Assembly: GCA_014686905.1 (NCBI GenBank)
Contig: GCA_014686905.1_4093.1
Length of the DNA stretch: 64,000 bases
Source: a phage
Reading direction: 5' to 3' (one strand)
Shown here: positions 3,420 through 47,016 of the stretch, one piece after another
Layout: the number at the start of each line of letters is the position of its first letter
Numbering within the stretch: position 1 is the first letter of the stretch
Position numbers and translations under genes: made by a program
Notes under the pieces: generated by a model
What the model was told of the DNA's origin: nothing
What the model saw: only the letters and a program-made list of their open reading frames with translations
Databases searched by the model: none

Positions 3420-3430
3420 GGACGAAAATA

Positions 3431-5170
3431 ATGAGTTGGAAACGACATATGACAGTGGGAAGGTCTAAACTATCGACCATCCCAAATCAGTCCAGTAATA
3501 GCAATAAATCAACAGGAACGAAAACAAATTTCGCTTCCTATCTTCCTGTTGTATATAATGGATTGGCAAATCGTACTGAGCGTTATAGTCAGTATGAGCA
3601 AATGGACCAAGATCCTGAAATTAGAACTGCATTGAATATAATTGCTGACTTTTGTACTCAAAGTACTGAAGATTTTGGTTTACCATATAAAATCAAATAT
3701 AAAGATGATATTGGTGATACTGAAGTAACGACTATTGAAGATCGTTTAGATGCATGGACTGAACAAAATGATTTTAAAACACGAATGTATGAAATTGTGC
3801 GTGGTCTTCTGAAATATGGTGATCAATTTTTCATTCGAGATCCAGAAACATTCGATTGGTATTGGGTAAGTCCCAAAAATGTTGAGCAAGTATTTGTTAA
3901 CGAAGCCACTGGTAAAACACCAGTAATTTATTATATACGTGACGTATCATTAAATTTGAAAGATAAAGTTTTTAGTAACCTTCAAGTAGGATTTGATAAA
4001 ACCGCTTATCCAGGAGCTATTCCAACAACAATGGGTGGTGGTGGTTCAGTAGCTGCTGGTGGTGCATCTGGTTTTACAAGTCAAGGAAATACGGCTGACC
4101 CATTCAGTACTAACGGTCAATTAGACGTTATTCCTGTTGGTGCAGAACACGTAATTCATCTAACACTAAATACAGGACAAGATGGGGTATGGCCTTTTGG
4201 TACTAGTATACTTGAGGACGTATTTAAAGTCTATAAGCAAAAAGAACTTCTGGAAGATAGTATCATAATTTATCGTGTACAACGTGCACCTGAGCGTCGT
4301 GTATTTAAAATTGATGTTGGTGATATGCAAGCACACCAAGCGATGGCTTATGTTGAAAGATTTAAAAATGAAATCCACCAGCGTAGAATACCTTCAAACA
4401 AAGGTGGAAGTACTTCACTAATGGATGCAGCGTATAATCCATTAAGCATTTTAGAAGACTACTTTTTCCCACAAACTTCTGAAGGTCGTGGTTCAGATGT
4501 TCAAACATTACCAGGCGGTGATAACTTAGGACAAATTGATGACTTACGTTATTTCAATAATAAATTGATTCGTGGTCTTCAAATACCAGCTTCATATCTA
4601 CCACAAGGTCCAGATGATGGTGGTGTTTCATTATTTGGTGATGGTGCTACACAAGCTATGGCAAGTGAATTGCGATTCAATAATCAATGTATGCGTTATC
4701 AACGTTTAGTTGCAAAACATTTTGATGCTGAATTCAAAAGATTTATGGTTAAAAATGGATATAACATTAGTACTTCATCTTTTGAAGTTATTATGAATCC
4801 ACCTATTAACTTAGCTTCTTATCGTAAAGCTGAACTAGATGCTAAACTAATTAATACATATCTTCCTCTTAATGACTTGCCTTATATGGCAAAACAAACA
4901 ATTCTTGAAAAAATGGGCTTTTCTAAAGCTGATATTGTTAAGAATGAACAAATGTGGTTACAAGAGAATCCACAAGATGGTTCCCAACCTTCTGGTGGTG
5001 AAGAAGATTCCGCAGGATTGCAGTCTGTTGGCATTGATGCTCCAAATGATCCTGGAATGGATCTTGGTATTGATGGAGAAGGTAATTTGGAAAGTGCTGA
5101 TGCCGAATACCAAGAGCAACAGAGTGGAAGTGGTGGTTTCGACCCTAATAATTTAGGCAATTCTTTTTAA
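3431..5170 (+). CDS. 20: portal vertex protein (T4 gp20-like)
   Basis: Central region IIYRVQRAPERRV...TLPGGDN...DLRYF matches the T4 gp20 portal as recalled; RBS AAGGA; position ahead of prohead-core/protease/scaffold/MCP genes. Confidence 0.85.
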   Translation: MSWKRHMTVGRSKLSTIPNQSSNSNKSTGTKTNFASYLPVVYNGLANRTERYSQYEQMDQDPEIRTALNIIADFCTQSTEDFGLPYKIKYKDDIGDTEVTTIEDRLDAWTEQNDFKTRMYEIVRGLLKYGDQFFIRDPETFDWYWVSPKNVEQVFVNEATGKTPVIYYIRDVSLNLKDKVFSNLQVGFDKTAYPGAIPTTMGGGGSVAAGGASGFTSQGNTADPFSTNGQLDVIPVGAEHVIHLTLNTGQDGVWPFGTSILEDVFKVYKQKELLEDSIIIYRVQRAPERRVFKIDVGDMQAHQAMAYVERFKNEIHQRRIPSNKGGSTSLMDAAYNPLSILEDYFFPQTSEGRGSDVQTLPGGDNLGQIDDLRYFNNKLIRGLQIPASYLPQGPDDGGVSLFGDGATQAMASELRFNNQCMRYQRLVAKHFDAEFKRFMVKNGYNISTSSFEVIMNPPINLASYRKAELDAKLINTYLPLNDLPYMAKQTILEKMGFSKADIVKNEQMWLQENPQDGSQPSGGEEDSAGLQSVGIDAPNDPGMDLGIDGEGNLESADAEYQEQQSGSGGFDPNNLGNSF

Positions 5171-12954: not shown

Positions 12955-13470
12955 ATGCAACTAACAAATTTTAAGATGTATGAAAAAGAAGGTGGTAATC
13001 CTAATTCTTTGTATATGATGTCCGATGAAGGTATGGATTGGTATGAATCTCGTGAATTGTTTGACATTAATAAAGCAAAATTTATGTATGATACTAATGG
13101 TTTAATTGTTTCAGCATCATATAACATTTATGATCTAGTACCTTTAGGTTTTAGTGTTTCTGAAATTGAATATGATGGTGATATTAACAAACTTTATGGT
13201 ATGGTTTACGATGGAAATACTATTCATGACTATATTGAAACTAAAGAAGAAAAAATTGAACGCCTAAAAAATGAATTATCTAATTTGAAATACATTGCAA
13301 TTCAAGAACTTGGACACTTAAAAACTGCTATGGATCTTGAGTTAGCAACTGATGAAGAAGCTGTATTGTTTGTAAAATTGAAAGATTATGTAACGCAATT
13401 GAATTCAATCAAACCAGCAGACATGATCAAGAAAACATTTTCATTTCCAGTTAAACCGGAAAAAAAATGA
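12955..13470 (+). CDS. tail fibre assembly/chaperone-like protein (ORF opens at 12913)
   Basis: AAGGAA before the ATG at 12955; size and position right after the fibre gene; weak motif support only. Confidence 0.5.
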   Translation: MQLTNFKMYEKEGGNPNSLYMMSDEGMDWYESRELFDINKAKFMYDTNGLIVSASYNIYDLVPLGFSVSEIEYDGDINKLYGMVYDGNTIHDYIETKEEKIERLKNELSNLKYIAIQELGHLKTAMDLELATDEEAVLFVKLKDYVTQLNSIKPADMIKKTFSFPVKPEKK

Positions 13471-13500
13471 GACAACACGTAAAGACGTGATACAATTAAG

Positions 13501-13536
13501 TCATCTCACCGATTGTGGTGAGGTGACATTTTTTTG
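13501..13536 (+). terminator. rho-independent terminator after the tail-fibre module
   Basis: TCATCTCACC-loop-GGTGAGGTGA followed by T7. Confidence 0.7.
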
Positions 13537-13560
13537 AAAACACACATGGAGAAATACAAA

Positions 13561-13863
13561 ATGGCTAAATCTAAAAAAGAAGTTAAAGTTGAAATTCGTG
13601 ATCTAAACGATGAACAACGTAAACGTCTCGGCGATGCACTTAACAACATTGTTGTACAACTAACTTTCATTGATGATACCAAAGCATCCTTATCTGATTT
13701 TGTTTCTAGTGTTTCTGATGAACTTGGTATCGATGCATCTGATATCAAACAAGCTGCACAACGTATGTACAAAGGTGATTACTTTGACAAACAAAATAAA
13801 CTCGATAATATCGAAACTATTCTTAGTGTTACTAATAATCTTCCACAAGCAGATGATTACTAA
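13561..13863 (+). CDS. hypothetical basic protein (100 aa; ORF opens at 13534)
   Basis: GGAGA before the ATG at 13561. Confidence 0.45.
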   Translation: MAKSKKEVKVEIRDLNDEQRKRLGDALNNIVVQLTFIDDTKASLSDFVSSVSDELGIDASDIKQAAQRMYKGDYFDKQNKLDNIETILSVTNNLPQADDY

Positions 13864-13885
13864 TTAGTACTAAAATATATTAAAT

Positions 13886-13913
13886 AGCCTCCAATGACGG
13901 AGGCTTTCTTTTT
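13886..13913 (+). terminator. rho-independent terminator upstream of the DNA polymerase gene
   Basis: AGCCTCC-AATGAC-GGAGGCT followed by TTCTTTTT. Confidence 0.7.
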
Positions 13914-13942
13914 AACTTAATAAACGTAAGGGAATACAAACG

Positions 13943-16900
13943 ATGTATATCGATGCTTATATGGAACGTAAACGTACTGGTGATATTCTTCATGTAGTTG
14001 AACGTAAGAATGGTAAACGTATTCTACGCGAATTAGATCCAGTATATGAATATTATGTTGAATCCCCACAAGGAACACATAAAACTGTTTATGGTACAAT
14101 GGCTAAACATTTTGAGTTTCAAACTCAAGCTCAAATGAATAAAAGTGTAGAGCAACACAAAAGTGAAGGTCTACGTATTTTTGAAAGTGATTGTAACATT
14201 ACATTTAAAACATTAGCTAAAGAATATATGGGAAAAGGTTCACCCGATTTGAACATCGTGTTCTTCGATATCGAGACTGATTTCCATAAGAAATTTGGTT
14301 ATGCTCCACCATCAGACCCGTTTAACCGAGTAACCGCTATTTCTTTATATCAATCGTGGACTGGAAAGGATTATGTACTTACTTTACCACCTGCTGATAT
14401 GGAAATTTATGAAGCACAAGATATTGTTCGCCAACTAAATGAAGAAACAAACGATCCTAACAGTACTGTAATTTTATATACAGACGAAAAGGAAATGTTT
14501 ATGGAATTCTTTAGTTTAATTGATGATTCTGATGTTATTTCAGGATGGAATAGTGAATTCTTTGATATTCCATATATGATCAATCGAACTAAAAAAATCT
14601 TCAATGAAGCAACAACTGCTCGTTGGTGTTTATGGAATAAAAAACCAAATTCACGTGAAGCAGACAACTTTGGTAAAACTGTTCAAACATATGATCTGGT
14701 AGGTCGCGTCCATCTTGATTATTTGGCTTTGTATAAGAAACATGCTGGTCAAGTTGAACAATCTTATAAACTAGATTATATTGCTGAAAAAGTAACTAAA
14801 GAAAATAAAGTATCATATGAAGGTTCATTGGATAAACTTTACAGAGAGGATTACATTACTTTCTTGCGTTATTCTAAACAGGATAGTATTCTTCTTAAAA
14901 AGATTGATGCTAAATGTGACTATATCAACCTACACAATCGACTTGCACACAAAGAATGTGTACTTATCAGCACAACAATGGGTTCAGTAGCACTAATCGA
15001 CACTGCTATTATCAACTTAGCACATACTCGTGGTGAAGTTGTTTTTAACAAAGCACCTAAAGATGATCTTGAGTTTGATCCAGAAATGGAATATTATGGT
15101 GAAGATGGTGAAGATGAAGATGAGAAAATTAGTGCAAAAGCAGCAGGTGCATGGGTACAAGATCCAGTACTAGGACTTGTAAGTGACCTTGGGTGTACTG
15201 ACTTTAACTCTCTTTACCCTACTGTTCTACGTACTTTGGGTATGAGTACTGAATGTATTCTTGGTCAATTACGTCAAGATTACACCGATGCGTATCTTGC
15301 AGCTAAAATCCAAGAACAGAAGAACAAATCTAAATCTAAATCATTTGAACCAGATTGGACTGCGGCATGGCATGGTTTATTTGCTGCTGTTGAATTTACA
15401 ATGGTTCATGAAAAGTCAGAAGAAACATTGATTGTTGATTTAGAAGATGGGAGTTCTTTTAAAGCAACGGGCAAAGAGCTATATGATATTATTTTTGCAG
15501 AAGATAGTACTATTGTACTTAGTGCAAACGGAACACTTTTTGATAAGTCTAAGTCTGGTGTAATTCCTGACATTCTAACTCAATGGTATTCTGAACGTAA
15601 AGCACAGCAAAAAATGGTCATTGACTATAAACATATGTATACTGATGGTTGGGAGTTTAATGGCTATGAAAAAGTCGAACCACTACTATCAAACTATACC
15701 CCTGGTACAATGTTTAGAACTAATATTCATGATAATGATCCTGTATACTTACTTCGTAAAGAAATTGGTAAAGGACAATGGGATGAAGTTGCTAAGTTGA
15801 TTGTAGAAAATGGTTTAGTACTAAAAGATGGTCGTATTTTCTGTCCTAAAGAAGAAAAAGATTACTTCAAACAACGTAGTGCTTTCTGGAAACAGAACCA
15901 ACAGATTCGTAAGATTCTTCTAAACAGTCTATATGGTGCACTATTGAACAAAGGTTCTCGTTTCTTTGACAAACGTTTAGGTCAATCCGTAACATTAACT
16001 GGACGTTCTATGACCAAACATATGGCAAGTCGTATCAATGAGATTACTACTGGTGTATATAATCACCAAGGTGGTTCAGTAATTTATGGTGATACTGACT
16101 CAGTTTACTTTAGTGTAACTCATTATCTGAAAGAACAAGGTATTCCATATAATCTATCTAAAGAAGAGATTGTTGATATGTATATTAAAATTGGTGAAGA
16201 AGTTGGTGAATCTTTCCCATCATTTATGCATGAGATGTTCAACACTGGTATTGAAAAAGGTAAGATTGTTGGTGCAGACCTTGAGATGGTTGGTTCGCGT
16301 GGCCTATTCTTGAAGAAAAAACGTTATGCAATTCTGAAGTACTGGGAAGATGGGTTCCGTAAAGATATTGATGGTAAACCAGGTGAAATCAAAGCGATGG
16401 GTCTTGAAATTAAACGCTCAGACACGCCAAAATACATCCAGAACTTCCTAGAAGAGACTCTAATCGCATTACTGGTAGGTGAGAGTGAACAACAGCTAAA
16501 ACAGCGTGTACGTGAGTTTAAGGACGTATTTAAGGATATGCCTGTACATGAAAAAGGTTCACCAAAAACTGTAAAAAACTACACTAATTTAGAGGCTGAA
16601 TATCAGCTAACTGGTAAGTGTAAAGTTGGTCACGTTCTTGCTGGTATCCAATGGAACCGTCTACGTGAAGTTTATGATGATAAATCTGTACCAGAAGTAA
16701 CGGATGGAACAAAAGTAATTGTCTGTAACTTAAAAGATAATCCTATGGGAATTAAAGCTGTTGGTTATCCAATTGACTGTGTTGAGTATCTTCCAGAATG
16801 GTTCTTGGAACTACCATTTGATACTGAAAAAATGGAAGAGATTGTTCTAACTAAAAAATTAGAGAATATTTTTGGTATTTTGGATATGGATATTGGTATT

Positions 16901-16948
16901 CATGAAAAAAGTACTGCGTCAGTAAACAATGGATTCTTCACTTGGTAA
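13943..16948 (+). CDS. 43: family-B DNA polymerase (T4 gp43-like)
   Basis: Exo I FFDIETD; DFNSLYP (region II); KILLNSLYG (region III); YGDTDS (motif C); 1001 aa. Confidence 0.92.
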   Translation: MYIDAYMERKRTGDILHVVERKNGKRILRELDPVYEYYVESPQGTHKTVYGTMAKHFEFQTQAQMNKSVEQHKSEGLRIFESDCNITFKTLAKEYMGKGSPDLNIVFFDIETDFHKKFGYAPPSDPFNRVTAISLYQSWTGKDYVLTLPPADMEIYEAQDIVRQLNEETNDPNSTVILYTDEKEMFMEFFSLIDDSDVISGWNSEFFDIPYMINRTKKIFNEATTARWCLWNKKPNSREADNFGKTVQTYDLVGRVHLDYLALYKKHAGQVEQSYKLDYIAEKVTKENKVSYEGSLDKLYREDYITFLRYSKQDSILLKKIDAKCDYINLHNRLAHKECVLISTTMGSVALIDTAIINLAHTRGEVVFNKAPKDDLEFDPEMEYYGEDGEDEDEKISAKAAGAWVQDPVLGLVSDLGCTDFNSLYPTVLRTLGMSTECILGQLRQDYTDAYLAAKIQEQKNKSKSKSFEPDWTAAWHGLFAAVEFTMVHEKSEETLIVDLEDGSSFKATGKELYDIIFAEDSTIVLSANGTLFDKSKSGVIPDILTQWYSERKAQQKMVIDYKHMYTDGWEFNGYEKVEPLLSNYTPGTMFRTNIHDNDPVYLLRKEIGKGQWDEVAKLIVENGLVLKDGRIFCPKEEKDYFKQRSAFWKQNQQIRKILLNSLYGALLNKGSRFFDKRLGQSVTLTGRSMTKHMASRINEITTGVYNHQGGSVIYGDTDSVYFSVTHYLKEQGIPYNLSKEEIVDMYIKIGEEVGESFPSFMHEMFNTGIEKGKIVGADLEMVGSRGLFLKKKRYAILKYWEDGFRKDIDGKPGEIKAMGLEIKRSDTPKYIQNFLEETLIALLVGESEQQLKQRVREFKDVFKDMPVHEKGSPKTVKNYTNLEAEYQLTGKCKVGHVLAGIQWNRLREVYDDKSVPEVTDGTKVIVCNLKDNPMGIKAVGYPIDCVEYLPEWFLELPFDTEKMEEIVLTKKLENIFGILDMDIGIHEKSTASVNNGFFTW

Positions 16949-29167: not shown

Positions 29168-29986
29168 ATGACAAAATTAAATGAGTTTTTATCAAATGTA
29201 GCAGTTCTAGATACTGAAACTACTGGGGTTGAGAGTGAAGATGATATTATTGAATTTAGTATCTCGTATCCACATACTTCACATGAAAACATTGATACTA
29301 TTGATAACTATACATTGAGATACAAACCCTTGAAAGATATTCCACCAGAGGCATCTGCTGTGCACTTTATCAGTACTGAGGATGTAGCTAATTGTGTTGG
29401 GTATAAAGATGATTTAGATAACATTGATGCACTTATGGGATGCCGTAAGTATTTTGTTGGTCATAATGTACAATTTGACCGTAGAATGATGGTAGATAAC
29501 GAATATAAATATCGTAACTCAATTTCACAGTACTTACTTGATGAAAATAAATGGATTTGTACCCTTCGTCTTGCTAAGAAAATGTTCGCAGAAGATATTG
29601 AATTTAAAAACTTAACTCTAAGTTATTTGTGGTATAAGTTTGGATGTTATCGTGATGTTCATCGACCTGTTAATGCACACGCAGCAAAAGACGATGTGTT
29701 TATGTGTTATCAGGTTCTAATCAAATTAGTTGAAATTGCAATCGAACGTGGACATATCGAACCTAATGGTGATATTGGTGAGCAAATTGTAACTTTCTGC
29801 AACACACCAATGCGTTATCAATTCATGCCATTTGGTAAACACAAAGGTGAGCCAATGAGTACAGTTCCATTGAATTACATTGAATGGATGATTACTAATA
29901 GTGACATTTTAGATGCAAGTAACCCTAACTGTGATAAAGATTTAGTATATACATTTGAGTACGAATATAATACTCGAACTAATTAA
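29168..29986 (+). CDS. DEDDh 3'-5' exonuclease (DnaQ/RNase T-like) with a C-terminal FGKHKG (DUF3820-like) extension
   Basis: Exo I VLDTETTG; Exo II HNVQFD; Exo III H..AAKDD; C-terminal FGKHKGEPMSTVPLNYIEWM. Confidence 0.75.
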   Translation: MTKLNEFLSNVAVLDTETTGVESEDDIIEFSISYPHTSHENIDTIDNYTLRYKPLKDIPPEASAVHFISTEDVANCVGYKDDLDNIDALMGCRKYFVGHNVQFDRRMMVDNEYKYRNSISQYLLDENKWICTLRLAKKMFAEDIEFKNLTLSYLWYKFGCYRDVHRPVNAHAAKDDVFMCYQVLIKLVEIAIERGHIEPNGDIGEQIVTFCNTPMRYQFMPFGKHKGEPMSTVPLNYIEWMITNSDILDASNPNCDKDLVYTFEYEYNTRTN

Positions 29987-32481: not shown

Positions 32482-33327
32482 GTGTTTGATTTCAGTGATA
32501 TTAAAAATAAGTCGGTCGATGATGATGAAAAACCAACACAGCATTCTTTTTCTATTGCTGAATTTCTAAAACACATTGACCGTGCTGATTATAAGTACTA
32601 TAATGACATGACCGAAAAAGAACGAAAAGAGTTTACTCCATATACTGTTTTGCGATGGGTAAGCTCTTTAGATGATTCGTTACAAGTAACCTACCCTAGT
32701 AGTAAAGTTGAAAGTGTATTTGGAAAATGGAAATCTGGTGGTAAAGAAGCACTGACTGAACTAGTTACTGAATTAAAGTCTTCAGGGACAAATGTTTCAT
32801 CAGTAACTAAGTACTGTCATAGTGATTATGATTGGCGTATTAAATTTGCAGTCCAATCAAAAGATGACGCACAAAAATTAATATCCTCAATGGTCGAATT
32901 TGGCGTATCAGGTTCAGAAATTGTTTCATTAGTAGATACTGAAGTTGTCAAATACCAACTTATTATGCTAAATGATATGGTTAATGATGGATTTTGGGAT
33001 ATGAAAGAACATCCAGAATTAGTATATCAGCTTATGTGTTCAGTCCATGATATGATTGGTGGACAAGAAATGCCACGTAACTGGTTAAACTTTTCTAAGA
33101 ATTTCAAAAAGGCAAATAACGAATTATTTGAGTTAATTAAAAGCTCACAACCTGATACTATATCTACTCAAATGAATGAAGATGAGTACAAAATTGTTCT
33201 ATTGCAGTATGATAAAAAAACATTTGAGACATTTCTTGACAATAATGGTTTTCAAGATAATGAAAAGAAATCTATGATGAAATTGTTTAAAGAAGAATGT
33301 AAAAAATATGGCAAAGAAATCAAGTAA
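32482..33327 (+). CDS. hypothetical protein (281 aa, apparent GTG start)
   Basis: AGGAG 9 nt before the GTG at 32482. Confidence 0.45.
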   Translation: MFDFSDIKNKSVDDDEKPTQHSFSIAEFLKHIDRADYKYYNDMTEKERKEFTPYTVLRWVSSLDDSLQVTYPSSKVESVFGKWKSGGKEALTELVTELKSSGTNVSSVTKYCHSDYDWRIKFAVQSKDDAQKLISSMVEFGVSGSEIVSLVDTEVVKYQLIMLNDMVNDGFWDMKEHPELVYQLMCSVHDMIGGQEMPRNWLNFSKNFKKANNELFELIKSSQPDTISTQMNEDEYKIVLLQYDKKTFETFLDNNGFQDNEKKSMMKLFKEECKKYGKEIK

Positions 33328-34018
33328 TAAAGTATATACCTGTAGATTTTGTGATCGTGAATTTAAACGTGAAGAAACTGTAAACACACATAAATGTATA
33401 AAACGTGACCGATACGAAGACCGCCAAAGCCGCCAGATGATGGAGGCTTTTCGTATATATATGCAATTTATGGAATTGAATAAGTTCCCATTTAAAAAAG
33501 GCGTAGAGCCTTTTATTGCTTTTATAAAGTCAAAGTACTTTAATGATTTTTATAGTTTTGCCGAATACTATTTGAATAATAGAGATATTATTAATGTGGA
33601 CGAGTTTGTAAAGTACTTGATTATCAATAACAAACCAATCACGGAATGGAGTACATATAAAGCAAAAGATGAATGGATATTAAAAACAATTCGTGCCGAG
33701 CACCCAAAAGAAGCAATTGCAAGAAGTGTTATCTCACTGGTTGAATGGGCTGAAAATTTGAATGTACAATGGAATACTTTCTTTGAAAATGTAAGTTCTG
33801 CCCGTGCAATTGCATGGATTGAGAGTGGTAAAATTTCACCTTGGATTATCTGGCTTGCTCCTAAAAAAAGTACTAATAAGTTTTTTAAAAAACTATCAAA
33901 CTCAGAAATTGAATATATACTTAAATACATCGATCCAAGTTATTTTGAAATCAAAACTATAAAATACAAAAAGGATTGTGATGAAATTAAGATTATGCTA
34001 TGTGAGGCAGGATTATGA
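33308..34018 (+). CDS. hypothetical protein with N-terminal C2H2-type zinc finger
   Basis: YTCRFCDREFKREETVNTHKC is a classical C-x2-C...H-x1-C/H finger. Confidence 0.5.
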   Translation: MAKKSSNKVYTCRFCDREFKREETVNTHKCIKRDRYEDRQSRQMMEAFRIYMQFMELNKFPFKKGVEPFIAFIKSKYFNDFYSFAEYYLNNRDIINVDEFVKYLIINNKPITEWSTYKAKDEWILKTIRAEHPKEAIARSVISLVEWAENLNVQWNTFFENVSSARAIAWIESGKISPWIIWLAPKKSTNKFFKKLSNSEIEYILKYIDPSYFEIKTIKYKKDCDEIKIMLCEAGL

Positions 34019-34344
34019 ATGGAAAAAGTATATATAATAAAATACCAGAAGGGTATGTACCTGTACCTAAAGAACAAAAATCAAAACAAATATCTCTACT
34101 TAGACAAGGATCTATTACTGAAATAACTTTAGATGGTAAAACATTTCAAGTTCATGATCCTGCTCGTATTGAAAAAATTATTTCTTTGGTAGAAAGACAC
34201 GAAGAACGCTTTTTCAGTTTAAGTCAAGAATTGGCAAAGACAAAACAAAATTGTAGATTATTAGAGAATCAAATATCAACTTTGACTAATACAGTTAAAC
34301 AGTTACAGGAGCAAATAAAAAATGCAGGATTCGACCGATTCTAA
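34015..34344 (+). CDS. hypothetical coiled-coil protein (109 aa)
   Basis: ATGA overlap with the upstream gene. Confidence 0.45.
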   Translation: MNGKSIYNKIPEGYVPVPKEQKSKQISLLRQGSITEITLDGKTFQVHDPARIEKIISLVERHEERFFSLSQELAKTKQNCRLLENQISTLTNTVKQLQEQIKNAGFDRF

Positions 34345-34960
34345 ACATTATAGAAAAGCCCGAACTGATATTGACATTGACTTCAAGGATAGTAAAAGCG
34401 TAATCGCTAAACTTCCATGTGTGCGAAGTACTGAAAAAATTACGGAGGATGGTTTAATCCCCCATAATAGTGGTGTTCATTTTGATAATATACCTATTGA
34501 TCCAATCACTGGATTGGCAAGTATACAATATAAAGAAGCTGAAAGGTTAGGGTATCAAAAAGTTGATATTCTTTCACAGTCAGCTTACATGTATGTTCGT
34601 GATAGAGAGCATTTAAAAGAACTAATGAATCAGGAACCAAATTGGGATCTATTGTTAGAACCCGAAATTGTAGAACATCTATCGCAAATTAAAAAACATG
34701 TAACTTTATTAAATGTATGGAAGCCTAAATCTATAGACGAACTAGCAATGTTTATTGCAATGATTCGCCCAGGAAAAAGGCAGTGCCAAAGTATGAACAC
34801 ATGGGACGAAGTTAAAGCTACCATATGGGATTATAGTACTATAGGCACTGACCAAGCAGGAAATAAATTACGATATTTCAAAAAGCCACATGCTTACGCA
34901 TATAGCTTAATGATTGTTGTACAACTAAATGCTTTAGTTGAACATCTTACTTCTTCTTAA
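34322..34960 (+). CDS. hypothetical protein with DnaE (Pol III alpha) finger-like motifs
   Basis: KVDILSQ, LAMFIAMIRPG and KKPHAYAYSL resemble DnaE motifs KMDFLGL, ALVALFRPGP and NKSHSAAYAL (from memory) in the same order. Confidence 0.4.
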   Translation: MQDSTDSKHYRKARTDIDIDFKDSKSVIAKLPCVRSTEKITEDGLIPHNSGVHFDNIPIDPITGLASIQYKEAERLGYQKVDILSQSAYMYVRDREHLKELMNQEPNWDLLLEPEIVEHLSQIKKHVTLLNVWKPKSIDELAMFIAMIRPGKRQCQSMNTWDEVKATIWDYSTIGTDQAGNKLRYFKKPHAYAYSLMIVVQLNALVEHLTSS

Positions 34961-35300
34961 GAGCCACATTACGACGCTTGATGCGTTTCTGTGGCAAATT
35001 GCTTAAAGAAACTACTGGACCACATACGAAATTCACCGACGGTGTATCGAATCTCTGTGTGTACGGTTCAAATTTCTCCATCTCTTCTTGAAAGAATAGA
35101 CAAACTGGAATGGTTCTATTACTTTGCCACCACCAATCGTGTGCTATACCTAACAATTCGTCTTGCATTGAATCATCCATATCATCGAAACAGTAAAGAG
35201 TTGTATACTGTTTGCTTTTGATTTTGATGATACCAACAAACGTTTTACCATCATACTGGATTACAGTAATGAATGGTGGAATAGTGTTATATTGATTCAT
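34947..35300 (-). CDS. hypothetical protein (117 aa) - lone minus-strand ORF inside a + strand block
   Basis: ORF only; Trp-rich; basic C-terminus. Confidence 0.35.
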   Translation of the reverse strand: MNQYNTIPPFITVIQYDGKTFVGIIKIKSKQYTTLYCFDDMDDSMQDELLGIAHDWWWQSNRTIPVCLFFQEEMEKFEPYTQRFDTPSVNFVCGPVVSLSNLPQKRIKRRNVALKKK

Positions 35301-35357
35301 ATTAGTTCCATAAATATTAGTATAAATTTATACCTATTATTTATGGAAGGAAAAACT

Positions 35358-36335
35358 ATGGCTCATCACGGCGTGTTTATGTACCCTTATAATCAGGAAG
35401 TATCATTGGGCAATTTTAATATGCCATATAGCAATGAAAAACTAACTATATATAGAGGGGCAAATAATAATTTATCTTTTACTGTTCACAACGCTGATGG
35501 AAAATATACTTTATTGAAAGATAATGAATATCTTACATTTATGATTTTTGATGCACGAAATAATACTAAACTATTTGATGTTGTATTAGAAAAACAAGAA
35601 CCCAGTTGGTTATCAGAAAGTGGACAAGCAAGACAAACATTAGGAAATAAAAAGAAAGTATATTATGGATGTATTGTTCCAGCAGGAGTTATTCAAGATA
35701 CCAGTCCTGGTTCAAAATATAGATGGAGCATTACTAAAGTAACAATGGATGGTTCACTTATAGAACCAACACAATATCTATACACAGGGATGAACTTTGA
35801 GGCATCAGCAGAGCTAATAATTTCAGACCAAGCAGCACCTGTATTTGTCCCCAGTACTGAAATATCAGTTAATAAAAATCCAGCATGGACAACTATAAAG
35901 CGTTTATATCATGAACCAATTGGAAATGGTATGATTGGTGAATATGATATTCTCGCATCAACTCCACTACCAGCACAAATGCAGTTTGGATTAGTAGATG
36001 GATTAAGTAGTATTGCAATCTATTTTGATAAATTTATTGGTAGAATACAGCTACAAGGGTGCTTGTGTAACAACGTACCTAATGATAATGAAAACTATAA
36101 ATGGTTTATTATTAAATTAGATGGAAAGGATTATATTGAAAATGGAATTGATTCAGAAGGTTTTCCAAAAGAACTTGACGGAATACAAGCATTTAATTTT
36201 AAAGGAAATTATATGTGGTTACGTTTGGTGGTTGCTATTCATCCCAAAATTGTTCCAGTACCATATGACTATGCTGCTGTCCGAAAAGTGTATGACCCTT
36301 TCCTAACAGTACCTAAAATTTTGATACGTAGATGA
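35358..36335 (+). CDS. hypothetical protein (about 325 aa; ORF opens at 35292)
   Basis: GGAAGGA RBS before the ATG at 35358. Confidence 0.5.
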   Translation: MAHHGVFMYPYNQEVSLGNFNMPYSNEKLTIYRGANNNLSFTVHNADGKYTLLKDNEYLTFMIFDARNNTKLFDVVLEKQEPSWLSESGQARQTLGNKKKVYYGCIVPAGVIQDTSPGSKYRWSITKVTMDGSLIEPTQYLYTGMNFEASAELIISDQAAPVFVPSTEISVNKNPAWTTIKRLYHEPIGNGMIGEYDILASTPLPAQMQFGLVDGLSSIAIYFDKFIGRIQLQGCLCNNVPNDNENYKWFIIKLDGKDYIENGIDSEGFPKELDGIQAFNFKGNYMWLRLVVAIHPKIVPVPYDYAAVRKVYDPFLTVPKILIRR

Positions 36336-36390: not shown

Positions 36391-37446
36391 ATGAACGCTG
36401 TACAAAACATAATGGCACAAATTATGAATGATCCAGTACCTGCGATTGGTACATGGTCACAACACAACTGTCCAGCTTGTGTGTTCAGAGGACATTCAAG
36501 GCCGGATACAAAGCACCGTGGTAATCATATGTTCAATGCAGATGGTTCCGTTTCATATAACTGCTTTAACTGTAGTTTAAAAACTGGTTGGCAACCAGGA
36601 AAATATATGAGCAAAGATATGGAGTCTTTGCTCATTTCTTTTGGTGCACAAGATAAAGAAATAGAATTAGTTAAGTTTTATATTAAAGAAATGGTTGACA
36701 GCGGTGATTTTGCTGCACAAGAAACTGTTGCATCAAAATTGTATGACCGAGTAACAGTACGTGATTTGCCATCAAATGCAAAAACATTTTGGGAATGGGC
36801 TTCTTTACCTGAAGATAAAATTCCACAAGAATTTATAAGTGTTTTGCATAATGTCAATGAAAGAAACCCATATCTGTTAGACTTAGAATTATATTGGTCA
36901 CCTAATAAAGAACATAAAATGTATGACAGATTTATTATTCCATATTTCATGAATGGTAAAATTATTGGTTATACTGCACGACATAAATTAAAAGATCCTG
37001 GAAGTACATACAGGTTCATAAATCAAGTAAGTACTAATATACTATATAACTATGATTTATTAAAAGATGAACGAATAAAAACAATTTTAGTATGTGAGGG
37101 TCCGTTAGACGCAGCATTAATGGGTGGTGTATCTGCTAATAACTTTAAATTATCAAACGTACAGATTGATGTATTAAAAGATGCACAGCAAAAAGGTAAA
37201 AAAATAGTTATTGTTCCAGATAGAGATAAAGATGGATTAATAACTATAGACCAAGCACTTGAAAATGGATTCAGTGTTTCCTTCCCAGACTTTGGTGCTG
37301 TAAGAGAAGGTAGTACAATACGTCATATCAAAGACTTTGAAGAAGCTTGTGCACGATTTGGTAGGTTATTTTGTTTACAATTAATACATGATAGTATAGT
37401 AGATGAGCCATTTTATATTAAAGCTCAAACGGATAAATGGATGTAA
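36391..37446 (+). CDS. 61: DNA primase (gp61-like; zinc-binding domain plus TOPRIM)
   Basis: N-terminal CPAC...CFNC zinc motif; TOPRIM VCEGPLDA and DRD; 351 aa vs about 342 in T4. Confidence 0.8.
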   Translation: MNAVQNIMAQIMNDPVPAIGTWSQHNCPACVFRGHSRPDTKHRGNHMFNADGSVSYNCFNCSLKTGWQPGKYMSKDMESLLISFGAQDKEIELVKFYIKEMVDSGDFAAQETVASKLYDRVTVRDLPSNAKTFWEWASLPEDKIPQEFISVLHNVNERNPYLLDLELYWSPNKEHKMYDRFIIPYFMNGKIIGYTARHKLKDPGSTYRFINQVSTNILYNYDLLKDERIKTILVCEGPLDAALMGGVSANNFKLSNVQIDVLKDAQQKGKKIVIVPDRDKDGLITIDQALENGFSVSFPDFGAVREGSTIRHIKDFEEACARFGRLFCLQLIHDSIVDEPFYIKAQTDKWM

Positions 37447-37468: not shown

Positions 37469-38989
37469 ATGATTCAAAGCACAGTGGATGTGAAACAATA
37501 TGGGATTAATGCACAACAATACTTATTATCTCAGATTTTCAGTAATCCTGATTTATATGTACGTTGTAAAAATATCCTTAAACCAGAATATTTTGATAAA
37601 ACATTTCATGAAAGTATTCAATACGTGCATGATTATGCTGCAAAATATAGTTCATCACCTACTTTGAAAGATATTGAAGTTAAAGGTGGTTATCAATACG
37701 ATCAATATGAAGTTCAAGAATTACATAAACAATCAGTACTTGATACCTGTGGTGAATTTTGTCGCCATAAAGCATTAGCTTTAGCCGTTGAAAAAGGAAT
37801 GGAACTTGTCCATCAGAAAAAATATGGTGGAATCGAAGAACTAATCCGAGAAGCAATGTTGGTAACGGTACAGAATGAGTTAGGTTTGGATATTTTTGAA
37901 AACCCTGAAGATACAATCCGCTCACTCAGTACAATGCAAGGATCATTTAAGAGTGGTTGGGAAACTCTTGATTACAAACTTTTCGGTGGATTTGGGCGTA
38001 GAGAGTTAGAGATCTTTGCTGCTGCATCAGGTGGTGGTAAATCAGTAGTACTGCAAAATTTAGCAGTTAACTTTGCGAAAGCTGGAATGAATGGTGCATA
38101 CATTTCACTTGAACTAGCTGAAGAGTTGGTTGCTGTTCGTATCTATGGTATGATGACTGAATCAAAACTCAGTAACGTAAAAAATGAAGCTGAAAAGATT
38201 GGATTTGCTGTTAAAGTTGAAGGTAAAAACAGTGGTATGTTGCGTATTAAACGCTTACCTGAATCTGTAACAACCACAGACGATATTGAAAGTTATCTAC
38301 GTGAATTACAAATTAAGATGGAAATCAAACTTGATTATGTATGCGTGGACTATTTGGATCTATTAACTTCTAATCGTCTTGGACCAAATGATAAATCCAA
38401 TACATTTACTAAAGATAAATTTGTATCAGAAGAATTACGTGCTCTTGCATCCAAAATGGATTTGACTGTTTTCACTGCATCTCAGTTTAACCGTAGTGGT
38501 ATGGACGAAGATAAGAAAAGTCAAAGTCAGATTGCTGGTGGTATTTCAAAAATTTATACTGCTGATAACGTAATTTATATTGAAGCAAAAAAAGAAACTG
38601 GCGAACTATGGTTTGATTTCCAAAAAACACGTAACAGTAGTGCAGTAGGTTCCCGTTTGCGTATGTCATATGATATTGATTCATTGAGAGTTCTTGACCA
38701 CGCAACTACAGTACAACAAATGGAAACCGAAGGTAATGGATTCCGTCACAGCGGTGTTTCTAAGATTGGTGGAGGGAACATGGCGTTACCACCCAGCACT
38801 ATGCAAACATTACGTCATTCGCTTTCTGGTGCAGCTAAATCACCATCTGTGCAACCTGACAATACAGTAACACTAAATACTGATAGTGCTCCTAACTCTA
38901 CGACACAAAACGAAATACAGAATCCACAGACACATGCTGGTACTGATCGTGTTCATGCAATGAAGCAATGGTTAAATCAAAGGAAATGA
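37469..38989 (+). CDS. 41: DnaB-family replicative helicase (gp41-like)
   Basis: Walker A AAASGGGKS; RecA-type core; N-terminal helical domain; C-terminal extension. Confidence 0.85.
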   Translation: MIQSTVDVKQYGINAQQYLLSQIFSNPDLYVRCKNILKPEYFDKTFHESIQYVHDYAAKYSSSPTLKDIEVKGGYQYDQYEVQELHKQSVLDTCGEFCRHKALALAVEKGMELVHQKKYGGIEELIREAMLVTVQNELGLDIFENPEDTIRSLSTMQGSFKSGWETLDYKLFGGFGRRELEIFAAASGGGKSVVLQNLAVNFAKAGMNGAYISLELAEELVAVRIYGMMTESKLSNVKNEAEKIGFAVKVEGKNSGMLRIKRLPESVTTTDDIESYLRELQIKMEIKLDYVCVDYLDLLTSNRLGPNDKSNTFTKDKFVSEELRALASKMDLTVFTASQFNRSGMDEDKKSQSQIAGGISKIYTADNVIYIEAKKETGELWFDFQKTRNSSAVGSRLRMSYDIDSLRVLDHATTVQQMETEGNGFRHSGVSKIGGGNMALPPSTMQTLRHSLSGAAKSPSVQPDNTVTLNTDSAPNSTTQNEIQNPQTHAGTDRVHAMKQWLNQRK

Positions 38990-44052: not shown

Positions 44053-44634
44053 ATGGCACAACAACAAATTGCTTTACAACAAGTAAGAACTGGTAAACAG
44101 AGAGACTTACCTGATGCATTAGAAAAAGGTCAGATAGGATTCAGTACTGATGTGGGTCGTGTTTTTATTGGCCTTCCATCATCATCTGACCCCGCCAGCT
44201 TAGTTGCAGGTAGAACTTGGACTACTGATCCAAATTCAGGTAAAGAAAACGTAGAAATAATTACAGAATTTTCACCGTGGAGAACGGTATCAAAAATAAT
44301 TAACAGACCGTTTAAAGTTGATCTTCCACAAAATCAAGAAAGTATAGAAGTTATTCTTGAAAGTGAAAGTAGAGTATTCATCGATTATATTGCATATGAT
44401 GATACCGAAACGGTTTTGGAATCAGGAACTATTCAAATTGTAGCTGCTGGTACAAACACGATGATTGCACAGTCAAATAATACAAATAGAACTGACGCAA
44501 TTATTTCTATCTCATTTGAAGATCCTGCATATGATTCTACAACTGGAAATATGCAATTTAACATAGTTAACTCGGATTATTTAAATTCAGGATATCATAT
44601 AGAATTTGTATATCGTGGGTGGGACAAACCTTAA
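44053..44634 (+). CDS. hypothetical protein (193 aa)
   Basis: AGGAG RBS; terminator follows. Confidence 0.5.
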   Translation: MAQQQIALQQVRTGKQRDLPDALEKGQIGFSTDVGRVFIGLPSSSDPASLVAGRTWTTDPNSGKENVEIITEFSPWRTVSKIINRPFKVDLPQNQESIEVILESESRVFIDYIAYDDTETVLESGTIQIVAAGTNTMIAQSNNTNRTDAIISISFEDPAYDSTTGNMQFNIVNSDYLNSGYHIEFVYRGWDKP

Positions 44635-44653
44635 AAGGCGTCCCGCCTTTTTC
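44633..44653 (+). terminator. rho-independent terminator
   Basis: AAAAGGCG-TCC-CGCCTTTT followed by TCTT. Confidence 0.7.
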
Positions 44654-44697
44654 TTCCACTAAAAAAAGAAATTTACATCAAAAAACAAGGATGACAC

Positions 44698-47016
44698 ATG
44701 ATTAACGTAACCAAGCGTAATGGAATGAAAGAGCCGTTATCATTGGATAAGATCCATCAAATTTTATTTTTCGCTGCTGAAGGTTTAAGTGGTATTTCAG
44801 TTTCTGAAATTGAAATCCGAGCACAGCTTCAGTTTTATGAAGGTATTGAAACTAGTACTATTCATGATATTCTTATTAAAGCAGCAGCAGAACTTATTTC
44901 AGAAGATACACCTAATTACCAATATGTTGCTGGAAGACTATTAAACTATAGTATTCGTAAGCAAGTATATGGGCAGTATGACCCAATTAAATATACTGCT
45001 CATCTTCAAGAAATGGTTGATACCAAAATATATGATCCTGAAATTCTTGAGAAATATACTCTTCAAGAAATAGAAGAGCTTGGACGTTATATCAAACATA
45101 AACGTGACGATAAATTTACTTATGTTGCAATGCGTCAATGGGAAGGAAAATACCTTTACAAAAATCGCGTTACTAAGAAAATTTATGAAACTCCACAAAT
45201 GGCATATATGACTATTGCAGCAATCATCTTTATGGAGTATGATCGTTCTGTTCGTATGTCATATGTTAAAAAGTTTTATGATGCAGTAAGTAACTTTGAC
45301 ATTAGTCTTCCTACGCCTATTATGGCTGGTCTACGTACAAATACACGTCAGTTTAGCTCTTGTGTAGTACTAAACGTTGGTGACAGCTTGGATAGTATTG
45401 GTTCCTCTAACCACGCTATTCTACGTTATATTTCACGTAAAGCTGGTCTTGGTATTAATATGGGCCGCATTCGTGCTCTGGACTCCGAGATTCGTTCAGG
45501 TGATGCAGTACACACTGGGCTGATTCCGTTCATTGCAGCTACTGCTAAGACTGTTAAAAGCTGTTCACAAGGTGGTGTTCGTGGTGGTGCAGCAACTGTT
45601 CACTTCCCATTGTGGCATTTGGAATTTGATAACTTGGTAGTCCTTAAAAATAACAAAGGTACTGAGTTTAACCGTGTGCGTCAACTGGACTATTGTTTCC
45701 AAGTAAACAAAACTTTGTATCAACGTTTGGTTGATGGAAAGAATATTACATTCTTTAGTCCTAATGAAGTCCCTGGGCTATATGAAGCATTCTGCTCTGA
45801 TCAAAAAGAATTTGAAAAGTTATATAAAAAATACGAAGCTGACCAAAGCATCCGTAAAAAATCCGTACCTGCTGTTGAAGTATTCAGTACTTTAATGACT
45901 GAGCGTGCTGAAACTGGGCGTATCTATATTCAAAATATTGACCATGCAAACACTCATTCAACATTTATTGAATCTATTGCACCTATTGAACAATCCAACT
46001 TGTGTCAAGAAATCGCACTACCATCTGTGCCATTTGATGACATTAATACTGGGGAAGGTTTGATTAGTTTATGTACATTGAGTGCAATCAACTGGGGTAA
46101 CTTTGACCGTCCAGAAGATATGGAAACGGCATGTGATCTTTCTGTTCGTGCTCTTGATTCTCTATTAGACTATCAAGACTACCCAGTAGTTCATGCTGAC
46201 CGTGCTACAAAAATGTATCGTCCACTAGGTGTTGGTATTATTAACTTTGCATACTTCCTTGCTAAACGTGGTTTACGTTATAATGAAGCAGCACTAGAAA
46301 CAGTTAACGAGTGGGCCGAGGCATGGTCTTACTATCTAATTAAATCTTCTGTACAGCTTGCTAAAGAGAAAGGTAAGTGTGAAGGATTTGATAATCTAAA
46401 ATATGCCAAAGGTATCCTTCCAATCGATACTTATAAATCGGACATTGATGAATTAGTAACTAAAGAACTAAAACAAGATTGGGAATCCTTACGTGCCGAT
46501 ATCAAAGAATATGGTATTCGTAACGCAACAACAATGGCATTAATGCCAGCAGAAACAAGTGCACAAATCAGTAACAGTACTAACGGTATTGAAAAGCCAC
46601 GTTCTCTTGTAACGAAGAAACTATCTAAGGATGGTATTCTTAAACAAGTAGTTCCAGAAATCAATAAGTTGAAAAACAAATATGATTTACTATGGGATCA
46701 GAAAGATAACATTGGTTATCTACAAATCTGTGGTGTTCTACAAAAATACATTGACCAAAGTATCAGTGTTAATACTAGTTATAACCCAATACACTTCCCT
46801 GATGGTAAGTTGCCAATGTCAACTCTTCTAACTGAACTTATGTATGCATATAAAGTTGGTTTGAAAAATCTTTATTATCATAATACAAATGATGGTTCAG
46901 ATGAAGTAGACGTTGAAAAAGTACTGAAAGAAGCTGCCAAACCAGAATCTGGACAATTTGTATTACCATCACTTCCTGATTTGGATGAAGGTGATTGTGA
47001 TAGTTGTAAAATCTAA
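44698..47016 (+). CDS. nrdA: ribonucleotide reductase class Ia large subunit
   Basis: N-terminal ATP-cone-like VTKRNG; active-site SNLCQEIALP; C-terminal CDSC cysteine pair; 772 aa. Confidence 0.9.
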   Translation: MINVTKRNGMKEPLSLDKIHQILFFAAEGLSGISVSEIEIRAQLQFYEGIETSTIHDILIKAAAELISEDTPNYQYVAGRLLNYSIRKQVYGQYDPIKYTAHLQEMVDTKIYDPEILEKYTLQEIEELGRYIKHKRDDKFTYVAMRQWEGKYLYKNRVTKKIYETPQMAYMTIAAIIFMEYDRSVRMSYVKKFYDAVSNFDISLPTPIMAGLRTNTRQFSSCVVLNVGDSLDSIGSSNHAILRYISRKAGLGINMGRIRALDSEIRSGDAVHTGLIPFIAATAKTVKSCSQGGVRGGAATVHFPLWHLEFDNLVVLKNNKGTEFNRVRQLDYCFQVNKTLYQRLVDGKNITFFSPNEVPGLYEAFCSDQKEFEKLYKKYEADQSIRKKSVPAVEVFSTLMTERAETGRIYIQNIDHANTHSTFIESIAPIEQSNLCQEIALPSVPFDDINTGEGLISLCTLSAINWGNFDRPEDMETACDLSVRALDSLLDYQDYPVVHADRATKMYRPLGVGIINFAYFLAKRGLRYNEAALETVNEWAEAWSYYLIKSSVQLAKEKGKCEGFDNLKYAKGILPIDTYKSDIDELVTKELKQDWESLRADIKEYGIRNATTMALMPAETSAQISNSTNGIEKPRSLVTKKLSKDGILKQVVPEINKLKNKYDLLWDQKDNIGYLQICGVLQKYIDQSISVNTSYNPIHFPDGKLPMSTLLTELMYAYKVGLKNLYYHNTNDGSDEVDVEKVLKEAAKPESGQFVLPSLPDLDEGDCDSCKI

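Follow-up and report, generated by a model that had tools for sequence, protein, structure and literature searches.

Related C-family polymerases

A split minimal form of the DNA polymerase III (Pol III) alpha subunit has been described in group 2.2 jumbo phages, where it occurs alongside a family B DNA polymerase (PolB) (Iyer, Anantharaman, Krishnan, Burroughs & Aravind, Viruses 2021; PMC7824862). It has an N-terminal nucleoside triphosphate (NTP)-binding subdomain and is devoid of the PHP, clamp-binding, OB and tau-binding domains. The same authors suggested that the split enzyme cooperates with PolB in one-strand synthesis or in repair, and argued that it resembles an ancestral form (PMC7824862). 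Its N-terminal half (N-half) was already noted as a "truncated" Pol III alpha in the CBB genome paper, and a 2026 review on jumbo phages does not mention the split enzyme. Here we analyse a stretch of phage DNA of 64,000 nucleotides (NCBI GenBank assembly GCA_014686905.1, contig GCA_014686905.1_4093.1; hereafter the window), which carries an open reading frame (ORF) for a protein of this kind. We consider it likely that the product of this ORF is the C-terminal part of a two-chain mini C-family nucleotidyltransferase, whose reaction would most likely be templated DNA synthesis. The ORF and its borders are as follows.

34322..34960, + strand: ORF of 212 amino acids (aa) plus stop codon (ATG at 34322, TAA at 34958-34960), putative C-terminal subunit of a split minimal Pol III alpha-like enzyme
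34308..34311, + strand: GGAG, Shine-Dalgarno-like, 10 nucleotides (nt) before the ATG, read off the sequence
34015..34344: gene upstream of the ORF, whose 3' end contains the ORF start codon (23-nt overlap)

The first-pass annotation of the window had placed a 212-aa ORF at exactly this position. Over 10 kb around it, the sequence matches Escherichia phages slurp01, G17 and Sharanji at 100% identity, and PBECO4 and its relatives at no less than 99.7%. This identity assigns the window to Asteriusvirus (PBECO4/121Q-like), that is, to Rak2-like jumbo myophages of the coliphage type with genomes of about 350 kb. The ORF is the ortholog of gp16 of phage 121Q, which RefSeq names "DNA polymerase". 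It matches phrog_11778 (likewise "DNA polymerase") over its full length, with residues 9-211 aligned to positions 1-197 of the 197 in the profile (E=2.1e-108).

A comparison with the split minimal Pol III alpha of group 2.2 shows that the ORF resembles its C-terminal unit, both in length (about 200 aa) and in carrying the Mg2+- and template-binding parts of the core (PMC7824862). As in that system, the N-terminal unit is encoded by a distant gene, a family B polymerase is present and the phage is a T4-like jumbo myophage. The phage range, which includes Rak2-like and PA5oct-like phages and Atu_ph07, matches as well, and no difference was detected for the ORF. The family is therefore already known and the ORF is a member of it. 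What we add is a residue map, natural fusions of the two halves, the conservation of the steric-gate histidine, the ratio of nonsynonymous to synonymous substitution rates (dN/dS) and a convergent neighbour.

The C-family enzymes DnaE and PolC (PF07733 and PF17657) share with the ORF a Pol-beta-like palm with an aspartate triad, the lysine of a KxD motif, an RPG motif and an O-helix with a steric-gate histidine. They differ in being single chains of 1000-1400 residues, whereas the phage pair has about 380 residues in two chains and lacks the PHP domain, the thumb, the finger tip (about residues 660-750 in E. coli) and the beta-binding, OB and tau-binding domains; the ORF also stays below the Pfam thresholds. 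Full-length phage DnaE proteins (FADO gp179 and Phettuccine gp53; 'group 3.2') belong to the C-family too, and the N-half matches them by tblastn at E ~1e-4. Unlike the phage pair, they are host-like single chains of 1120-1159 aa with PHP domain, thumb and full fingers, and serve as main replicase without an accompanying PolB. B. subtilis DnaE (DnaE3) may be a functional analogue, being a second C-family polymerase beside another main replicase; in our phage the comparable feature would be the link to primase genes. DnaE3 extends RNA primers and then hands off to PolC, and it is full length and uses the clamp.

Homology to Pol III alpha

Three short blocks of the ORF product had been noticed in the first-pass annotation as resembling conserved DnaE segments in the same order. 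Alignments, Pfam, profile comparison, hhalign and the predicted fold together show that this resemblance is real homology. The E. coli reference is DnaE of strain K-12, with the motifs DFDVDF at 401, FDFLGL at 554, RPGP at 639 and NKSH at 757. The E-INS-i alignment comprised the concatenated 121Q gp56 (the N-half) and ORF, three natural single-chain fusions, and the DnaE proteins of E. coli, Bacillus phage FADO and Streptomyces phage Phettuccine. The resulting map, in which the three blocks are those at residues 79-86, 147-152 and 185-196, is given below.

34364..34384, + strand: TDIDIDF, residues 15-21; D16 and D18 correspond to DnaE D401 and D403 (E-INS-i; DnaE models cross the motif in the fusions)
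34460..34477, + strand: PHNSGV, residues 47-52; corresponds to the DnaE GKHAGGV strand after the thumb (hhalign and E-INS-i)
34556..34579, + strand: QKVDILSQ, residues 79-86; corresponds to VKFDFLGL, with K80 and D82 at K553 and D555 (third catalytic carboxylate); listed as 'KMDFLGL' in the first-pass annotation
34760..34777, + strand: MIRPGK, residues 147-152; corresponds to DnaE FRPGP (639-642), the 'FRPGP' of the first-pass annotation (Pfam, hmmsearch, hhalign and E-INS-i)
34874..34909, + strand: YFKKPHAYAYSL, residues 185-196; corresponds to DnaE GFNKSHSAAYAL (756-766), the start of the finger O-helix, with H190 at H760

D401, D403 and D555 are the catalytic residues of E. coli DnaE, and H760 is its presumptive steric gate against ribonucleotides (Vaisman et al., PMC8485763). 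In the ORF, FKKPH at residues 186-190 is the counterpart of the O-helix motif FNKSH. The label 'finger-like' given to the product holds in so far as a fingers module is present, and it is incomplete: the ORF also carries the three metal-binding palm residues, and a fourth block, the DxD motif in TDIDIDF, had been overlooked and aligns with the catalytic PDFDVDF. By alignment, the ORF is a reduced form of about residues 397-785 of DnaE, consisting of the metal-binding palm strands and the start of the finger O-helix. The nucleotide-binding G-S motif (GRGSGAGS, residues 361-368 in E. coli) is absent from it, and is found in trans in the gp56 ortholog and in cis in the fusions. No Pfam match to a PHP domain was obtained in the ORF, gp56 or the fusions, and at 172 and 212 aa the chains are too short to hold PHP, clamp-binding, OB and tau-binding domains.

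The profile search and structure prediction that had been proposed as checks both returned Pol III alpha signals (PF17657, hhalign and Foldseek). PF17657, the Pol III alpha finger family, is matched independently, below threshold, by 11 of 29 diverse family members, and no other Pfam family recurs among them. With the ORF alone, Pfam gave no match to PF07733 (NTPase/palm), and no NCBIfam model matched. In hhalign the ORF family aligns to a three-sequence DnaE profile at E=1.7e-4. An AlphaFold2 model built from a 29-sequence alignment is compact and confident (mean pLDDT 91.6). When it was compared with the PDB by Foldseek, the top 11 matches were all Pol III alpha, with probability 1.0 in the top seven, and the next match had E=1.9. 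The predicted structure settles the homology of the ORF to Pol III alpha.

Two placements were rejected. hhalign put ORF residues 1-30 on the thumb region; this was set aside in favour of the E-INS-i alignment and the Pfam and NCBIfam matches that run through the fusion junction. A possible clamp-binding motif in the C-terminal QLNALV was dismissed, as this stretch aligns with the DnaE helix YQTLWL.

The N-terminal partner and natural fusions

In 121Q the gp56 gene (172 aa, 44257..44775) lies about 31 kb downstream of gp16 (13282..13920). Phage IA-38 has both genes at the same spacing, which puts the start of the N-half at about window coordinate 65295, approximately 1.3 kb past the window end. 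By tblastn, the window itself contains no copy of the N-half and no other DnaE-like sequence. 121Q gp56 scores above the Pfam threshold of PF07733 (37.9 bits vs 23.9), the match beginning at residue 92. It carries GLGRGSSVAS...NEFLKW, and its end (...GLGRGSSVASYCLFLIGLHMVDSLKYELDVNEFLKW) corresponds to the DnaE segment GRGSGAGS...ERFLN that directly precedes PDFDVDF. The pattern GxGRGSSxxS shows no variation among the 28 N-halves and fusions compared. Since gp56 ends at the counterpart of the segment just before PDFDVDF, and the ORF carries the counterpart of PDFDVDF at residues 15-21, the enzyme is split exactly in the loop that joins ERFLN to PDxDxDF in DnaE, between the nucleotide-binding and the metal-binding parts of one palm. 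The first 90 residues of 121Q gp56 (1-80 in the fusion P0178) precede the DnaE-alignable part and are modelled at pLDDT 64-86; they may form an extra domain specific to the family.

The two halves co-occur. By tblastn the C-terminal half (C-half) is found in 96 phage records and the N-half in 120; without 17 Streptomyces-phage and 8 Bacillus-phage records, which have full-length DnaE genes among the matches listed, about 95 N-half records remain. Counts of C-half and N-half records are equal for phages of Escherichia (34 and 34), Pseudomonas (11 and 11), Salmonella (8 and 8), Erwinia (8 and 8), Xanthomonas (4 and 4) and Yersinia (4 and 4). Klebsiella has 11 C-half vs 10 N-half records; the odd one is phiKp_21 (86 kb), whose C-half without an N-half probably reflects a partial genome. 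Both halves are present in PBECO4, RaK2, GAP32, CBB, PA5oct-like phages, Atu_ph07 and CM1.

Natural fusions of the two halves were also found. An exhaustive profile search gave 515 clusters at 50% identity, almost all of them 100-230 aa long (length conserved at about 190-220), with two longer proteins. Four single-chain fusions were identified: P0178, P0270 and P0271 (375-376 aa, from separate samples) and the more distant P0260 (336 aa). In P0178 (375 aa), residues 10-180 match gp56 (E=5e-18) and residues 190-374 match the ORF (E=9e-31). P0270 and P0271 are fused clusters from other samples, 78-81% identical. PF07733 reads through the fusion junction into the DxDxD motif with a score above threshold (59.6 bits, E=4.8e-16, residues 97-207), and it is also above threshold in a second fusion (35.4 bits). 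TIGR00594, the NCBIfam DnaE model, crosses the junction likewise (E=7.6e-15). From the co-occurrence and the natural fusions we conclude that the N-half and the C-half belong to each other. One MAFFT alignment, made jointly from the fusions and many N-halves and C-halves, was discarded because N-halves had been stacked on C-half columns; the alignment needs no more than 12 C-halves, and in the resulting version the final ~10 residues of the N-half are still out of place.

P0260 stands in a different setting. On a JGI metagenome contig (7992 bp; 1516-4181) its gene shares a 4-nt overlap with the end of the gene for a protein of 552 aa, which has a PF03090 'Replicase' domain (E=2.5e-13) and a helix-turn-helix. 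We take PF03090 to be the family of ColE2/pAL5000-type Rep initiators; ColE2 Rep is a primase. This single case looks like a translationally coupled two-gene replication module outside jumbo phages. Searches of IMG/VR and GTDB genomes yielded no further fused or Rep-linked relatives.

Conservation and selection

Conservation was scored in 103 full-length representatives of the clusters, which share just 25-47% identity with the ORF. K80 and D82 are conserved in 100% (104 sequences), D16, D18 and P150 in 98%, H48 and R149 in 97%, G51 in 96% and H190 in 95%. The best-conserved positions of the family are thus the equivalents of the active site. dN/dS is 0.10 against RaK2, a comparison in which synonymous sites are near saturation, and the corresponding ratio of nonsynonymous to synonymous differences (pN/pS) is 0.16-0.18 against GAP32 and Paride. 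The ORF is intact, with at least 80% coverage, in 94 of the 96 phage records. In the record of Escherichia phage CMSTMSU (MH494197.1, 260196-260825) the ORF match is split into four pieces at 94% identity, and coverage of the N-half is only 81%, which suggests frameshifts or sequencing errors in that genome.

Genomic context

The ORF is located between the genes for single-stranded DNA-binding protein (SSB), UvsX, UvsY, a DnaQ-like exonuclease and UvsW on one side and primase and helicase genes on the other. The surroundings also hold a T4-like terminase and a gp41-like helicase, and the SSB is gp32-like. The genes that matter for the discussion are listed here.

13943..16948, + strand: family B (T4 gp43-like) DNA polymerase, 1001 aa; the equivalent gene in phage SHEFM2K is annotated 'DNA polymerase' (phrog 262)
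29168..29986, + strand: DnaQ/epsilon-like 3'-5' exonuclease, 272 aa (Pfam RNase_T, E=7e-15), annotated 'DNA polymerase exonuclease subunit'
33308..34018, + strand: 236-aa protein, phrog_11058, with the N-terminal C2H2-like zinc-finger motif CRFCDREFKREETVNTHKC
34947..35300, - strand: convergent gene, 117 aa, phrog_11637, with a conserved 'WWW' motif; its 3' end overlaps the ORF 3' end by 14 nt
35292..36335, + strand: ~300-aa protein, phrog_14467 (TTG start, mechanical ORF); the 121Q start is at window-equivalent 35406 (309 aa), 'virion structural protein'
36391..37446, + strand: primase (121Q annotation)
37469..38989, + strand: DnaB-like helicase (121Q annotation); primase and helicase begin two genes downstream of the ORF

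The family B polymerase is presumed to be the main replicase of the phage. The arrangement around the ORF is shared by four distant lineages: the order C-half (+ strand), small convergent gene, ~300-aa protein, primase and helicase recurs in Paride, in Atu_ph07 and in the 141-kb Alishewanella phage Slickus01, and the fused P0271 gene occupies the same slot. The phrog_14467 genes are homologous across the lineages, and so are the phrog_11637 genes except in Slickus01. Homologs of the latter with the same convergent, overlapping layout were found in Paride (E=1e-22) and Atu_ph07 (E=2e-22), and another lies beside a fused mini-Pol III on a Logan contig; in Slickus01 the gene at this position has no detectable similarity. 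The convergent 117-aa protein may be a functional partner. Upstream of the C-half, a phrog_11058 gene is present in Paride as well (E=6e-38), and Slickus01 has an equivalent gene with a similar Cys/His motif.

The DnaQ-like exonuclease may serve PolB, the mini-Pol III or neither. In E. coli the PHP domain binds epsilon, and the mini-Pol III has no PHP domain. The C-terminal tail of the exonuclease has weak QSregVF_b and ExoX-like_C matches. As for phrog_14467, a 'virion structural protein' is odd inside a replication module, yet it is kept there in distant phages; its TTG start would overlap the convergent gene.

Proposed enzyme and alternative explanations

In the enzyme that we propose, the ORF product would give the palm strands with the metal-binding carboxylates D16, D18 and D82 and the lysine K80. 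Reduced fingers would come from it too, made of an RPG motif and of an O-helix that bears the steric-gate H190. The gp56 ortholog (172 aa) would supply the first part of the palm with GxGRGSSxxS. We infer that the two chains associate and rebuild one active site, in an enzyme without PHP domain, thumb, finger tip, or clamp-, tau- and OB-domains. Its activity would most likely be a short-patch, non-processive DNA synthesis dependent on deoxynucleoside triphosphates (dNTPs). It would act beside the family B replicase in replication or repair, possibly in primer extension. That H190 is kept as the counterpart of the steric-gate H760 argues for the selection of dNTPs, and hence for DNA synthesis over other nucleotidyl transfer.

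Several observations weigh against this proposal. Part of them concerns sequence statistics, which are weak for the ORF by itself: phmmer against the PDB gave no relevant or significant match, pairwise BLASTP against E. coli DnaE gave no significant match, and in Pfam PF17657 stays below threshold (13.5 bits vs a cut-off of 22, E=0.045, residues 129-162). The sole match of the family profile in the whole PDB sequence set is M. tuberculosis DnaE1 at E=1-2, in four colinear blocks (DIDIDF, a mid region, RPG and FNKSHA). Others concern what the chain lacks. The thumb (about residues 425-508 in E. coli, some 85 residues) has no counterpart, leaving a gap at ORF residues ~45-47, and neither have ~90 finger residues (about 660-750 in E. 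coli, YQEQ...LRRAMGKKK), with a gap after MIRPGK. In ternary complexes of Pol III and PolC the LRRAMGKKK segment supplies arginines that touch the incoming nucleotide; K152 of the ORF is a candidate for what replaces the missing elements. With the thumb and these ~90 finger residues missing, it is therefore not certain that the pair can polymerise on a primer-template. Furthermore, the genes of the two halves are always distant (~44 kb in PA5oct, ~180 kb in Atu_ph07) and never adjacent, and the gene order shared among T4-like replication modules may be inherited rather than functional. The ORF fits the C-terminal unit of the enzyme of Iyer et al. in every tested respect; the two are equated by the matching description. 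We found no biochemical or genetic study of any family member in the literature.

The missing elements that hold a primer-template (thumb, finger tip and clamp-binding region) would suit an active nucleotidyltransferase that is not a templated DNA polymerase, and that, for example, adds 3' tails without a template, nucleotidylates a protein or primer, or makes a small nucleotide product. We place this second in the order of likelihood and hold it to be improbable. The O-helix is kept together with the histidine that gates the ribose 2'-OH, which makes little sense unless the enzyme chooses dNTPs opposite a template, and the genomic setting is a replisome module. A role without catalysis, as a replisome accessory or as a decoy that would bind the beta clamp, tau or epsilon of the host and disturb host replication, appears very unlikely. 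The first-pass annotation had offered such a domain mimic, and a small protein resembling part of the host replicase, from a lytic phage that brings its own PolB, might be read in this way. In DnaE, however, epsilon is bound at the PHP domain and the beta clamp and tau at C-terminal domains, all outside the retained segment. Moreover, what selection has preserved best is the catalytic site, and the ORF has an obligatory-looking partner with a nucleotide-binding motif, to which it is fused in some forms. The family also spans hosts from Agrobacterium and Pseudomonas to E. coli, across which identity is only 25-47%. The mimic was thus not borne out.

A similar fate befell the idea, also raised in the first-pass annotation, of a decayed fragment, a pseudogene remnant of a phage or host dnaE, to which we assign next to no probability. 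The size of the product (212 aa vs about 1160 aa for DnaE) and a pairwise similarity below significance speak for it. The low dN/dS against RaK2 at near-saturated synonymous sites, the pN/pS values and the active-site residues conserved at 95-100% exclude a decaying fragment. The ORF is also intact in nearly all records, its length is conserved across the 515 clusters, its model is compact and confident, and no other DnaE-like sequence remains in the window. The selection and conservation data refute the remnant reading. The two-chain DNA polymerase stays the most likely explanation.

In a bolder form of the two-chain polymerase, gp56 and gp16 together would need no other chain to make DNA and, at ~380 residues, would be by far the smallest polymerase of the C-family. 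The pair would be dedicated to extending the primers of the neighbouring primase until PolB takes over, much as Pol alpha or B. subtilis DnaE does, and the 117-aa protein might be an accessory. This is a tentative idea that we would not bet on. Primer extension is hinted at by the order of C-half, convergent gene, primase and helicase in four lineages, together with the coupling of a fused form to a PF03090 protein. If active, the enzyme would show that the minimal catalytic core of a bacterial-type replicative polymerase is the palm and the O-helix, without thumb, PHP domain or clamp contacts, and it would serve as a compact model of how C-family enzymes catalyse and of how polymerases evolved. 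It would also raise the question of why a phage with a complete PolB replisome keeps a bacterial-type mini-polymerase under strong selection.

Annotation in phage records

Our results correct the records in which the gene is named 'hypothetical' or 'putative membrane protein', as well as its reading as a truncated dnaE. The label 'putative membrane protein' is found in the records of GAP32 (GAP32_282), CBB, pEa_SNUABM_47/50 and Muenster. In the GAP32 record it is based on one transmembrane helix predicted by TMHMM/Phobius. We infer that this helix is the hydrophobic C-terminal helix YAYSLMIVVQLNALV, the counterpart of the DnaE O-helix, and that the membrane label is probably wrong.

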